A DNA stretch of 64,000 nucleotides, from IMG/VR virus record IMGVR_UViG_3300029288_000153, positions 1 through 64,000 of that record. The stretch is one strand, 5' to 3'. The notes beneath the pieces are model-generated. The model ran no database searches. It saw only the letters and a list, made by a program, of their open reading frames with translations, and was not told the DNA's origin. Source of the DNA: a virus. Taxonomy: Duplodnaviria > Caudoviricetes. The stretch's first letter is position 1; each line of letters starts with the position of its first letter. Of the stretch, positions 6,800 to 10,826 are shown one piece after another. A program made the translations under genes and the position numbers.

Positions 6800-9064
6800 C
6801 TACTTATCGTCTATTTGTTCTGATGATTCTTTGATTACTACCGCCGGGGTAATCACGCAAATATCGTCCAAAGTGAAATCTTTTTCGATGTCCCATCGAC
6901 GAAGCGTCAGCACACATACGCCGCCGATCGTCCCTTCTGGTAATTTTATTGGTGTCTTGACGGTGTCTCCGTCGGGCTTTCGAGTAGTCCGAGGCCACAG
7001 GTTGGCCCGAAAACGCTCGCCGTCAACTTCAAATGACACCTTGGTGGCCTTGCCTCCCCAAAACGATACCGCCTCCGACACGTACGCAACACATCCAAAT
7101 TTAAACTTTGGCGGAATGCCCCCGATGGAATTAGTAAGCAATGCTCGAACCGCCTTGCCGGGCACCAACACGGTCCAGTTTTGTCCCTCAAATTTCTCGG
7201 GCGCATGCCAGGCGTACTTGTTGCCCTGTGTTTTGTAATCAACTCGCCCCATAGCCGCCACTAATTGAGCGAGCGGTTGGGTATATGACGGTAAAATGCT
7301 CTTGGTCAGCAGATACCGTTGAATAGGGGTCAGGTTTAAAAATCGCTCGTCGGCTTTGTGTATTTTTAATTCGCCGGTACGTTTATATCGGCGGTCGTTT
7401 ACTTCAGCGTCGGTGGTCTCGTAGAAGGTCAGCTTGGTGTATACGTCATTACACCCGACCGGAAACAAGGAGTCCGCGCACCCGGATACAATCAATTTAG
7501 TAATCAAACTTCGCCCTAATGCACTGCGCCCCTTGTGCCCGTTTACTAACGTTTCCTTCTTGACTTTGATTTTTTGCAGGAAATCACGTAGATCCGTATA
7601 AGGGCGGCGGGCTATCAGCTCTTCGTGGGCGGTGGGGCCCACCCCAACTAACAGCCGCAGAGGGGCTCGAATACGCTCATTTTGGATCTCGAAATCGTCT
7701 CCACTGAGCCGTACGTCGGGGGAGTCGATTAGGTGGCCGGCGTGCACCCAGAAGGAATCATCGATTTCGTTGCGATCGGCGTTGCGCAATACGGCGCACC
7801 ACCACTCAAGCGAATAGTAATGTTTTAACCACGCACATACATAACCGGTGTACGCGTAGGCGGCTGAGTGGGATTTGTTAAATCCATATTGACCAAAAGT
7901 AAACATCTGCCCCCAGATTCTTTCAGCCTCCTCGACACTCCCAAGCGTCTTAATGGCGCCAGGTAGAAATATGTCGCGGTCTTTGGCTACCTCGGCCATC
8001 TTTTTCTTACCGATATGTTGCCGAAACAGATCTCCTGCCTCCGGGGTGGTCTGTCCGATCTCCTGGAAGATTTGTTGGAGCGATTCCTGGTATACGATCA
8101 CCCCGTATGTATCAGGTAGGAGTCTGTCAAGGTGGGGGTTGTTACCGATCGGCTTGGCGCCGCTAGCCCGCGACGCAAATTCAGCTAGCATGTTGCGACT
8201 AACCACCCCGTCGGTAACCGTTGCGTCCAAAGGGCCTGGGCGATCTAGGGCCGTAAAGGCCGACAGGTGGGCCACGCTGGTAAGAGTATGTTTCCCGTTG
8301 ACGAAGAATAATTTTAACCACTGCTTGGCGGCCGGGGTGGAAAACTGGAACACAGTCTCGGTCTTACCTTCACAAATGTCTCGGAACACCGCCTGATCTT
8401 CAGGCAAATCCCAGACATCTAATAGTGCCCCGCAATGTGGAATCACCCGTAGCCCCGGCACCCGTAGTCCGTCGATCTGTTCATCTTTTTGAGTGTATCC
8501 TTGCCGCTGCTGAATAAGCCGTATACACCCTTGGATATCCTTTAAGCAACTCACACCCAAAAAATCCAACTTGATTCCGCCCACGGCTTCTACGCCCGAG
8601 GGGGTATATTGGGTTACCGGCAGAGCACTGGACCCCACCGTGGTAGTAGGAATAAAATTGACGATAGGCTCATCGCTTAGCACGACCCCGCAGGCGTGTA
8701 TACTCTTTTGGCGCTGTAGCCCTATTGCTTTTTGTGCCACCTCCCAGTGTTTGGGGTATCTTCGGGTATATTCTTTTAGTGCCTCGTCGGTCTCGATGCT
8801 TCCGGGCACTGGTTGTCCGTCTGCTCCTACGTACCCAAAAATAAAATCTCTGTCGGCGATCCCTTGTGGCGACACCTGCATTCTGGCTACTAATTTTTCG
8901 ATCTCGGGCGATACCTTGCCATCCAACACTCTGGCCACGTCCTTGACGGAAGACTTCAGGCGCAACATGGTGTCGGTGGAAATCTGAGCAAAATATCCAT
9001 CAAAGCGGTGACGTAGGTATCCTTCGTATGGGGCGACAATTGTTTTTATCGACTTAATTTTCAT
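6800..9064 (-). CDS. dnaE: DNA polymerase III alpha (DnaE), C-terminal part
   Basis: AQIST...VKDVARV, SIHACGVV, IKLDFLGV, VFQF, DRPGPL, TYGVIVYQE, YGFNKSHSAAY, C-terminal OB-like region. Confidence 0.93.
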   Translation of the reverse strand: MKIKSIKTIVAPYEGYLRHRFDGYFAQISTDTMLRLKSSVKDVARVLDGKVSPEIEKLVARMQVSPQGIADRDFIFGYVGADGQPVPGSIETDEALKEYTRRYPKHWEVAQKAIGLQRQKSIHACGVVLSDEPIVNFIPTTTVGSSALPVTQYTPSGVEAVGGIKLDFLGVSCLKDIQGCIRLIQQRQGYTQKDEQIDGLRVPGLRVIPHCGALLDVWDLPEDQAVFRDICEGKTETVFQFSTPAAKQWLKLFFVNGKHTLTSVAHLSAFTALDRPGPLDATVTDGVVSRNMLAEFASRASGAKPIGNNPHLDRLLPDTYGVIVYQESLQQIFQEIGQTTPEAGDLFRQHIGKKKMAEVAKDRDIFLPGAIKTLGSVEEAERIWGQMFTFGQYGFNKSHSAAYAYTGYVCAWLKHYYSLEWWCAVLRNADRNEIDDSFWVHAGHLIDSPDVRLSGDDFEIQNERIRAPLRLLVGVGPTAHEELIARRPYTDLRDFLQKIKVKKETLVNGHKGRSALGRSLITKLIVSGCADSLFPVGCNDVYTKLTFYETTDAEVNDRRYKRTGELKIHKADERFLNLTPIQRYLLTKSILPSYTQPLAQLVAAMGRVDYKTQGNKYAWHAPEKFEGQNWTVLVPGKAVRALLTNSIGGIPPKFKFGCVAYVSEAVSFWGGKATKVSFEVDGERFRANLWPRTTRKPDGDTVKTPIKLPEGTIGGVCVLTLRRWDIEKDFTLDDICVITPAVVIKESSEQIDDK

Positions 9065-10826
9065 CGAACCACCCCGTCACGTCTAGGCCTTTCGACATGG
9101 CTTCAGCCACCAACATGTCGCCTTGGTCCGTGTGCACCTTCTGGGATTTCAGCACCCGTCGACTCGTTCCATCTTCCATCTCCACGTCCAGCTGCTCTAC
9201 CTCACCGCCGAGGAGAATAGACCGATCCGCGCTATCGTTGTCGATGTCGGGCATCGAGTTGCCTCGAATACGCGTGGTGGTCAGAAATCGCTCCATCGAT
9301 AATCCATAGCGCAGAGGGTTGATATGGGTAATACCTAATAGATATGACAGCAATACTCCACCTGCAGAGCCGCGAGCCATGCCGGTCAGTAATCCATTCT
9401 TTTCGTACAGGTCTGCCACCTCATGGCAAACAAAAAAGTAAGGCAGCAGATCGATGACCCCATTTTTATGTATCATCGTGATTTCTTTGGTCAATCTCGC
9501 GCGCCACTCAGCGTTATCCCACCTCATTCGCCCCACCTGTCGGATCAGCTCCATGGTGTGCTTGAGGGTGTCGGTGGGGTAGAAGTGGGCGGGCAACTGC
9601 TTGCGGGCCTGCCACTTCCAACCAAACTTCCCCGCCCAGGCGTAGCTGTTCTCCACCCACCCCTCAAACTCTTTTTGGGTGGTGTGTAGATACTCCTGGA
9701 AATGTCCGAAGGCGTCCAAGGAGGATTGGCGATCATATGTCTCCGACATCCTCCATGAATCCCCACCACTCATCAAACGTACGTCCTGGACCGGCTTGTC
9801 TGCAGGATAGGCCAAGTGGGCATCTTCGCTACACAGTACCGGATCCCCGTACTTATGAGCCAGCCCCAACATAAACTGGTTCATGCCCGTCTGTAGGGCT
9901 CCATCGGGGGCCAGAGGGGAACACTCATTGGCCACATAGCCCTCCACCGACTTGACACTTACGATCTCGTAGGCTTCCGGTAAGTCTTGCCAGGTATTGT
10001 AGTTTTTGGTGGCCGTCAGGGTGGCGGTGGCCGACCCGCGCCCCGAGATTATTTTGGTCCATAGTCGCGCGAACTCGTCAGCGGCCCCCTCCCATACCTC
10101 TCCGCCAGCTAGTGTGATTCGGAGCTTCTTGCCTGTCCAGAATCTTAGAGGGTCCGTCTTGTTGGCGGGTTGAAAAAACACCCCCTTGACCCAATTGGTA
10201 TTGCACCTATGGGGCATCACCTCAACCATCCAGTTGCCGGGACGCACTATACCTCGCAGAGCGGCGTAGTAGGCTTCGGCGATATCGGCCCGCCCCAACA
10301 GTAGACTACGGCCGATGATGCCAACCAGACACCCCGACCCTACCGTGATATTTTGCCCACATAGCTCTTCAAGCTGTCGCCAATTCCATAGAGGCTTACG
10401 CTCTGATCCATGTCGCTCAGCCCGCTGCTCAGCTGCGCTGGATAGTCGACACATGGTCTCATAGGCCTGTTGGTCGGCAGCATGAATGGTTAAGTGTCCG
10501 TATTTATGGTACGACGCGTAGGTGCCTTTGTCGTCCTTGGGTATCCCGAACTTAGGCAATATCGGATCGTCGTCGTCGGACCTATAATAGATCTCTTGCC
10601 CCAGTATGCTGATTAGATTATTTTTTTGGGCCAGAGCGTATACGGTGGGGCAGTTAGCTAGTGTGCCGTGGTCCGTGCAGGTGGTATACCCGGTCCCCAG
10701 CTCTATCTCGCGCCGCATAAAAGCGTCGGGCGTAGAAGCGGTGTCTAGTGATCCTTGATGGACGTGTGGCGACACGAAATTTCTCATATTAGTTTTGGTC
10801 GTCCGATTAAGGGGTATACGGGTCAC
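9054..10826 (-). CDS. dnaE: DNA polymerase III alpha (DnaE), N-terminal part (PHP + start of palm); probable start 10787
   Basis: PHVH, TDHG, HLTI, SEDAH (PHP); ARGSAGG, LGITHINP, ERFL, SMPDIDND. Confidence 0.93.
   Translation of the reverse strand: MTRIPLNRTTKTNMRNFVSPHVHQGSLDTASTPDAFMRREIELGTGYTTCTDHGTLANCPTVYALAQKNNLISILGQEIYYRSDDDDPILPKFGIPKDDKGTYASYHKYGHLTIHAADQQAYETMCRLSSAAEQRAERHGSERKPLWNWRQLEELCGQNITVGSGCLVGIIGRSLLLGRADIAEAYYAALRGIVRPGNWMVEVMPHRCNTNWVKGVFFQPANKTDPLRFWTGKKLRITLAGGEVWEGAADEFARLWTKIISGRGSATATLTATKNYNTWQDLPEAYEIVSVKSVEGYVANECSPLAPDGALQTGMNQFMLGLAHKYGDPVLCSEDAHLAYPADKPVQDVRLMSGGDSWRMSETYDRQSSLDAFGHFQEYLHTTQKEFEGWVENSYAWAGKFGWKWQARKQLPAHFYPTDTLKHTMELIRQVGRMRWDNAEWRARLTKEITMIHKNGVIDLLPYFFVCHEVADLYEKNGLLTGMARGSAGGVLLSYLLGITHINPLRYGLSMERFLTTTRIRGNSMPDIDNDSADRSILLGGEVEQLDVEMEDGTSRRVLKSQKVHTDQGDMLVAEAMSKGLDVTGWFDEN

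Follow-up and report, generated by a model that had tools for sequence, protein, structure and literature searches.

The DNA analysed here, referred to below as the window, is a stretch of 64,000 nucleotides (nt) from a virus of the Caudoviricetes, corresponding to positions 1 to 64,000 of the 74-kb IMG/VR virus record IMGVR_UViG_3300029288_000153. On its minus strand, a DnaE-type DNA polymerase is encoded by two open reading frames (ORFs), 10826-9054 and 9064-6800, whose products are called here the N-part and the C-part. Extra residues are found on both sides of the break, as a C-terminal tail on the N-part and a short N-terminal head on the C-part, and their origin and possible role are the subject of this work. 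The features concerned are as follows.

9054-10826, minus strand: dnaE N-part ORF, coding for the PHP domain and the beginning of the palm, with the tail at its end; likely true start ATG 10787
6800-9064, minus strand: dnaE C-part ORF, coding for the remaining palm, the fingers and the helix-hairpin-helix (HhH) domain
9054-9064, minus strand: 11-nt overlap of the two ORFs, with the N-part stop TAA at 9056-9054 and the C-part start ATG at 9064-9062
9057-9209, minus strand: N-tail, residues 540-590 (GGEVEQLDVEMEDGTSRRVLKSQKVHTDQGDMLVAEAMSKGLDVTGWFDEN), net charge -7; a long acidic strand plus a globular part, second half of an N-intein (IntN)
9023-9064, minus strand: C-head, residues 1-14 (MKIKSIKTIVAPYE), basic; first beta-strand of a C-intein (IntC)
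9234-9251, minus strand: PDIDND, with two catalytic Asp of the C-family palm (D527 and D529), invariant columns in 40 relatives
8564-8566, minus strand: codon of D167, the third catalytic Asp, in the C-part motif IKLDFLG

Counted from GTG 10826, the N-part has 590 amino acids (aa) and ends with ...PDIDNDSADRSILLGGEVEQ...DVTGWFDEN followed by TAA, its C-terminal stretch reading ...MPDIDNDSADRSILLGGEVEQLDVEMEDGTSRRVLKSQKVHTDQGDMLVAEAMSKGLDVTGWFDEN up to that stop. The C-part (754 aa) has the N-terminus MKIKSIKTIVAPYEGYLRHRF... and its ORF, 9064..6800, opens with MKIKSIKTIVAPYEGYLRHRFDGYFAQISTD. The overlap and a Shine-Dalgarno-like GGGGTGG at 9075-9069, 4 nt before the C-part ATG, had been described in a first-pass annotation of this DNA, whose coordinates were reproduced; judged from the sequence, they suggest that translation of the two parts may be coupled. 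As for the N-part start, the longest ORF begins with GTG 10826, although the real start is probably ATG 10787, since homologues begin about seven residues ahead of the HxH motif. At least one public gene call puts it later still, at residue 37.

Pfam assigns to the N-part a PHP domain and positions 20-109 of DNA_pol3_alpha, and to the C-part positions 120-260 of DNA_pol3_alpha, followed by DNA_pol3_finger and HHH_6. Taken together, the two ORFs thus code for the PHP domain, three-Asp palm, fingers and HhH domain of a C-family DnaE (Pol III alpha). The closest named relative is the DnaE of Myxococcus phage Mx1, 46.8% identical to the N-part. A PHROGs search of eight neighbouring ORFs gave nothing informative.

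Conservation of the split and diversity of the junctions

The first-pass annotation had left room for a continuous gene, interrupted either by a one-nucleotide error or by a programmed +1 frameshift. The overlap does contain a short A-run (9061-9058), and a +1 shift would restore a continuous frame. Logan contigs from a second study, which span 8747-9478, carry no insertion or deletion and differ by only two substitutions, at 9201 (E to D) and 9210 (silent). Also, a 99%-identical protein on another contig has the same C-terminus, ...TGWFDEN. At the protein level, a database search with the end of the N-part returned dozens of clusters of 560-600 aa, 45-63% identical, which stop after a tail of the same type.

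The same split was looked for in homologous genomes and was indeed found: 57 N-parts with the common tail at their C-terminus were counted, and the junctions were compared over 15 paired loci for which the DNA was recovered. Scans for loci with an alignment of three tails had yielded only seven viral and six metagenome loci, mostly duplicates. All 15 junctions are different from one another. Overlaps of 1, 4, 4, 11, 29 and 32 nt were found, as well as intergenic gaps of 1, 30, 234 and 479 nt, while at locus L008 (7777-7782) an in-frame TAG is directly followed by a TTG start. In L094, the gap reaches 1.2 kb and holds four small ORFs of no known function. Two other gaps are filled by genes of the Endonuclease VII family, namely in L084 (Pfam Endonuclease_7, E 4.7e-8) and in L088, where the gene had not been called (Endonuclease_7, E 2.3e-12). 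Every one of the C-parts starts with M-(K/R)-(I/V/F/L)-(K/R/T/V/A)-x-(I/V/F). For one relative available as gene calls only (P0006), no C-part gene was called in the 4 kb downstream of the N-part.

The stops of the relatives therefore lie in other frames and at other distances, in some cases with whole genes between the halves, and the M-K-I-K start of the C-part is conserved; together with the independent contigs, this refutes the frameshift or one-nucleotide error, to which we attach next to no probability. As far as the sequence data reach, both are excluded, and the split of dnaE is confirmed.

Relatives devoid of the insert, Mx1 among them, are unsplit. The Mx1 DnaE is one continuous protein of 1289 aa whose corresponding site reads PDIDMDFPDRDLLIHPETGWLYRRFG, without the approximately 65 extra residues, and the insert-free dnaE allele reads ...RDLLVDPETGWL... 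around the site.

Concerning the content of the other gaps, those of L094 (4672-5915), L102 (4693-4926) and L103 (362-840), ranging from 0.2 to 1.2 kb, contain small ORFs without Pfam match, which could be decayed or novel cassette cargo. In the closest split relative of the window, the gap (L083:2399-3511) is occupied by a TnpB-like gene (Cas12f1-like TNB domain, E 7.6e-17), so that a second kind of mobile element uses the same dnaE gap.

An active site divided between two chains

The break sits eight residues past the catalytic PDIDxD strand. It had been noticed early on that the catalytic aspartates are shared out between the parts, PDIDND in the N-part and IKLDFLG in the C-part, and both motifs were located and are conserved: D531 of the N-part is, like D527 and D529, invariant in the 40 relatives, K165, D167 and L169 are invariant in 13 C-parts, and the PDIDxD and KxDFLG motifs as a whole are invariant in relatives. 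The catalytic role of these motifs is that known from Pol III alpha (D401, D403 and D555 in E. coli). With D527 and D529 in one chain and D167 in the other, the active site must therefore be assembled from both chains.

The insert as half of a HINT domain

The tail is about 50 aa long and the heads, which have an MKIKSI... start in the window, vary between 14 (window) and 25 aa; DnaE resumes at G15 of the C-part (GYLRHRF). From extein to extein, the insert measures about 64 residues in the window and up to about 90 in relatives. By-eye comparison had aligned the tail with the second half of IntN and the start of the C-part with the first strand of IntC, and the same register was recovered by three other routes.

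First, hidden Markov model (HMM) profiles of the tail, made of 9 and later of 15 sequences over 56 positions, were run against the sequences of all chains in the PDB. The top matches are the DnaE split inteins of Synechocystis (Ssp), Nostoc (Npu) and halophilic origin (E 0.003-0.011), always pairing profile positions 11-53 with intein residues ~52-100, and in the HMMER alignment ATKDH or ATSDH of the DnaE inteins stands opposite VLKSQ. The gp41-1 intein is found at E about 1. A profile of 40 whole N-parts also retrieves the Ssp DnaE inteins, at an E of only about 0.8-0.9.

Second, against 1.84 billion representative proteins, the 15-tail profile matches motif-bearing N-intein fragments on other DnaE proteins, namely P0162 (...FNRSHSR/CIHADQG...TEDH...; E 1.7e-7), P0175 (TEDH; E 1.1e-5) and P0176 (...YAFNK/CLTGDT...TLDH...; E 1.1e-5). 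On P0162 and P0175, Pfam Hint or Intein_splicing matches are seen as well, below the curated cut-offs.

Third, two AlphaFold2 (AF2) models were compared with known structures. The first one, made of an in-frame fusion from L008, has an overall pLDDT (predicted local distance difference test) of 66.6 and is confident for the tail only; it aligns to Npu DnaE residues 53-113 (Z 5.4, root-mean-square deviation (rmsd) 2.7 over 60 residues), and its Foldseek and VIA matches are nearly all inteins. The second one, based on an insert that is naturally contiguous (L104), reaches a pLDDT of 89.6, with about 94 on the head strand, and a predicted template modelling score of 0.73. In a comparison independent of Foldseek with 48,161 representative chains, its top 26 matches all belong to the HINT superfamily, including gp41-1 (Z 6.1), NrdJ-1 (Z 5.9), KlbA (Z 5.8; rmsd 2.3 over 59 residues), the PolII mini-intein (Z 5.4) and Npu IntN (Z 5.4). 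Model residues ~10-80 cover HINT residues ~45-118, and Foldseek ranks gp41-1 first (probability 1.00, E 0.04). Among ESM Atlas features, the nearest named clusters of the window tail are Intein_splicing, with scores of 0.82-0.88, to be taken as a lead only.

In all tests the register is identical, the second half of IntN followed by the first IntC strand, so that similarity to HINT is seen consistently in sequence and in fold. In gp41-1, the second of the C2-related units covers residues 59-110 and contains the natural split site (bioRxiv 10.1101/546465). Tail and head together are the second of the two pseudo-symmetric units of HINT, and the cut between them falls in the canonical loop for splitting or endonuclease insertion.

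Several observations nevertheless pull the other way, and would suit a tail that is an unrelated small beta-rich domain gained with the insertion, its HINT likeness being convergent or due to chance. The E-values against solved inteins are borderline, only about 0.005, and an unrelated non-intein (8yke) intrudes in the PDB search at E 0.007. Pfam, run on nine tails with E up to 10, reports neither a Hint nor an Intein family. Z scores of the structural matches are modest, none of them exceeding 6.1 and all thus below 8, which is expected as only half a domain is present, and the AF2 models are not fully independent evidence since AF2 may lean on the same sequence signal. Such a chance likeness is nonetheless improbable: differing search methods agree on one register, the E-values of 1.7e-7 and 1.1e-5 were obtained against motif-bearing N-inteins in 1.84 billion proteins, all of the 26 best structural matches among 48,161 chains are HINT, the break coincides exactly with the canonical split site of inteins, and in relatives the gap contains genes for homing-type endonucleases.

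A separate observation concerns the end of the tail. TGWFDE (9057-9077, minus strand), replaced by PWWLEK in many relatives, resembles the point where DnaE resumes, EGYLRH (9011-9028, minus strand), which reads GWLEER or GWLKKR in relatives and unsplit proteins; MAFFT repeatedly confused the two. This likeness could be a vestigial target-site duplication, or the stretch may be no more than the last strand of HINT.

Loss of the splicing residues

The lack of splicing residues reported for the window, with no block A nucleophile, LKSQ in place of the block B TxxH and no terminal HN-[CST], was confirmed and extends to the whole family. As a whole, the HINT domain is incomplete: the first unit, that is the first ~50 IntN residues with block A, as well as blocks F and G and the C-terminal strands, have no counterpart. 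Over the 57 tails, neither Cys nor Ser is conserved at the start, the residue that follows the extein (...LL(V)G) varying between G, K, W, M, Q, Y and others; in the window the junction reads LL-GGEVEQ, with Gly as first residue. At block B, the window has LKSQ and the family mostly PEDF, whereas the true N-inteins matched by the tail profile have TEDH or TLDH. The heads end with ...PYE, ...HHK or ...PYFP and lead straight into DnaE, without the block G Asn, and the first extein residue, where Cys, Ser or Thr would be expected, is an invariant Gly (G15).

In the absence of Cys/Ser1, TxxH and terminal Asn, and with an invariant Gly at +1, neither canonical nor any known non-canonical protein splicing can take place, and two separate chains have to make up the working enzyme. 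Inteins departing from the canonical pathway do exist (class 2, class 3 and Ala1; see PMC11766414), and the module might in principle still trans-splice, or join the chains covalently, by such a non-canonical mechanism. This is very improbable, given that the HINT fold is only about half complete, that neither junction has a conserved nucleophile, the +1 residue being always Gly, and that a terminal Asn, Gln or Asp and block F are all missing.

Contiguous forms and distribution of the insert

Although a word-indexed search for longer tail-bearing proteins missed them, an exhaustive HMMER search revealed four contiguous DnaE proteins with the insert (P0147, P0149, P0152 and P0156). In these, 8-12 linker residues connect the tail to the head, and DnaE continues in the same frame (...VYVWW-RKSDRSTE-KLTVLRRSRTDKSLPRWFP-GWFKERFG...). 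For three of the four, on contigs from different sources, the gene translates under the standard code:

L104:3001-7140, contiguous dnaE gene with half-intein insert
L105:3001-6468, contiguous dnaE gene with half-intein insert
L106:3001-8412, contiguous dnaE gene with half-intein insert

On a tree built from the N-terminal region of the polymerase, the four contiguous forms group together within a clade of 28 split forms that is well supported, and are best read as secondary re-fusions because of this nested position. L008, with its single in-frame TAG, is one substitution away from the contiguous state. That a short linker suffices and that both pieces are retained would be expected if tail and head form a single small domain. 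The split is therefore not obligatory.

On the polymerase tree, the split state calls for 10-12 changes, of which 7-9 are forced by well-supported branches, and the presence or absence of the insert calls for 11. The window protein belongs to a supported trio of split forms whose sister group includes unsplit, insert-free proteins. This patchy distribution indicates that the module was gained or lost many times, gain and loss being indistinguishable on these tree data. Together with the Endonuclease VII-type genes in two of the gaps, it fits a homing cassette consisting of tail, endonuclease and head. Nothing pointed clearly to a recent horizontal transfer of the cassette, tail and extein identities being correlated (r = 0.66) and the best excess being 0.70 vs. 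0.55. The module is not confined to the window, being a family-wide, patchily distributed cassette, sometimes with a homing-type endonuclease gene.

Probable pairing of tail and head

The tails are acidic, with a mean net charge of -7.1 over the 57 sequences and of -7.0 over the 14 paired relatives and the window, and carry an alternating h-E-h-E-h-E-D-G strand. Basic residues prevail in the heads (mean +2.8), whose strand alternates as K-I-K-x-I-K. Natural split inteins associate through an electrostatic "capture" step and a charge zipper (PMC11766414; PMC2677866; bioRxiv 10.1101/546465), and the complementary charges of tail and head fit such a zipper. A complex prediction with N-part residues 425-590 and C-part residues 1-200 scored 0.25 vs. 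a mark of 0.32, a result counted here neither for nor against the pairing.

The reading that we favour, and hold to be probably correct, is that of a two-polypeptide DnaE of an Mx1-like phage, whose break carries a catalytically dead remnant of a split intein serving as a non-covalent clasp. The first-pass annotation had proposed a degenerate split intein kept as a non-splicing clasp; the intein ancestry and the absence of splicing are borne out, and the clasp function is what we infer, as are the association of the parts through this module, the activity of the resulting polymerase and past homing.

Under this reading, a single message would serve both ORFs, and translation would reinitiate at the ATG in the overlap. 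The tail, through its acidic E-x-E-x-E-D-G strand, would then capture the head by its basic K-I-K-x-I-K strand, as natural split inteins do when they associate, and the two would fold into a small two-chain HINT half-domain. By docking the broken helix that follows the catalytic strand, this half-domain might hold the palm fragments in register, so that D527 and D529 of the N-part and D167 of the C-part would make one active site. The module would have arrived as a mobile "fractured gene" cassette made of tail, homing endonuclease and head, the endonuclease having since been lost in the window.

The main rival explanation accepts the split and the intein ancestry as real, and regards tail and head as the tolerated scar of a selfish cassette, the halves being held by the native interface of palm and fingers; the module need then only fold harmlessly, or might serve solubility, stoichiometry or higher-order assembly. 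Binding of tail to head is itself something we infer, and the native palm interface might suffice, because the tails of the Aeromonas phage Aeh1 NrdA are dispensable for heterodimer formation (PMC3045599). Persistence alone does not prove a clasp either, since the re-fused clade keeps the insert without needing one, and the mean identity of the tails is lower than that of the polymerase core (36% vs. 53%). On the other hand, the acidic strand is kept in 57 sequences and the basic head in about 20, with complementary charges; the insert-bearing proteins among the matches listed are all split, except for the one re-fused clade; and a domain folded from two chains itself ties these chains together. 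A scar is thus an unlikely explanation, albeit one to be taken seriously, and the clasp remains preferred.

More tentatively, and with some doubt on our part, tail, endonuclease (where present) and head may be a self-contained mobile element, which fractures phage genes that are essential and brings the antidote along, in the form of a two-chain half-HINT domain of ~65 residues re-joining the fragments non-covalently. If so, splicing would have decayed in nature into pure docking, half a HINT would be an autonomous folding unit, with a bearing on the origin of the fold by duplication, and a small, natural, charge-coded tag for split-protein association would be at hand.

Descriptions of split inteins usually present them as elements that splice, and for genes broken by homing endonucleases two kinds of repair are known, namely splicing and anonymous "tails". 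The DnaE family considered here links both, the tails at its break being the recognisable association half of a split intein minus the chemistry. It can now be tested whether the capture module of split inteins suffices as a protein clasp, whether one pseudo-symmetric HINT half folds autonomously, and how a selfish cassette fractures an essential polymerase beside its active site without killing the phage. From a practical point of view, a small natural heterodimerising pair which needs no nucleophilic junction residues is also of interest.

Other insertions in related polymerases

A second family of split phage DnaE was encountered (L090:4001-8449, P0090, P0093 and P0099-P0121). Its break lies about nine residues upstream, before PDIDxD (...RFLVPER/CGLEW...), its tail of ~95 aa starts with Cys, and an HNH_3/NUMOD4 endonuclease gene is present in the gap. 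The C-part starts with MKITHHKIQRATAPTTVIDCIVGRGLILGGHS/SLPDIDVDY, with no terminal Asn. This family may represent a fuller, also non-canonical, split HINT pair; for the group of P0090 and P0093, a whole-protein profile matched no PDB intein in the tail.

Extra inteins, or insertions of intein length, occur elsewhere in the polymerase in P0032, P0040, P0055, P0145, P0146, P0156 and P0173, as well as in L088:6104-9040. Those of P0032, P0040, P0055 and P0173, and faintly that of the L088 C-part, are backed by Pfam LAGLIDADG, Hint or Intein_splicing, while for those of P0145, P0146 and P0156 length is the only indication. Intein-type elements appear to have a hot spot in this DnaE lineage.

A second half-HINT-like insert had been proposed in the PHP domain of the window (9936-10190, minus strand). 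The 40-sequence N-part profile matches PDB inteins only at positions 537-580, in the tail and not in the PHP region, and thus lends the proposal no support, no PHP-specific search having been made. The PHP insert is also present in the unsplit Mx1 DnaE.

Comparison with known systems

The published literature searched yielded no account of a half-intein that sits at a gene break and does not splice. What is already known are fractured genes with active split inteins, also in DnaE at other sites, and unspliced genes-in-pieces with charged tails.

Fractured genes, in which split inteins flank a free-standing homing endonuclease gene, were reported from phage-like metagenomic loci, three of them DnaE loci (Dassa et al. 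2009, PMC2677866). As in these, a phage replication gene is here broken into adjacent ORFs with HINT pieces at the canonical split site, the pieces are oppositely charged, and an endonuclease gene lies between the halves in L084 and L088. The window has none, its ORFs overlapping by 11 nt, and so corresponds to step III of the Dassa model (PMC2677866). The type of endonuclease differs, being Endonuclease VII here vs. Vsr-like or GIY-YIG in the Dassa loci. Also, whereas the Dassa split inteins have six motifs, five catalytic residues, an IntN of 88-105 aa and an IntC of 33-54 aa (PMC2677866), the DnaE module consists of only ~50 + 14-25 aa, every catalytic residue is gone and the two chains stay separate.

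The second system is the NrdA of Aeromonas phage Aeh1, made of NrdA-a and NrdA-b, whose mobE-derived tails are essential for activity, not for heterodimer formation (Crona et al. 2011, PMC3045599). In both cases, an essential phage enzyme is split near its active site by a mobile endonuclease, remains unspliced, has oppositely charged extra tails at the break and builds a composite site. However, the NrdA tails have no demonstrated intein homology and their polarity is reversed, the N-side tail being basic. While the function of the Aeh1 NrdA was tested biochemically, the DnaE module is known from sequence and models. Crona et al. 2011 speculated that tails of the Aeh1 type might be degenerate remnants of split inteins (PMC3045599), and the DnaE family now gives sequence and fold backing to this 2011 speculation.

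Finally, the Ssp and Npu DnaE inteins and gp41-1 provide the best sequence and structure matches. The insertion site differs, after PDIDxD here vs. before FNKSH in cyanobacterial DnaE, and the module lacks their first unit, C-terminal strands, Cys1, TxxH, Asn and Cys+1. What it shares with them, as in Npu, is an acidic IntN piece facing a basic IntC piece.

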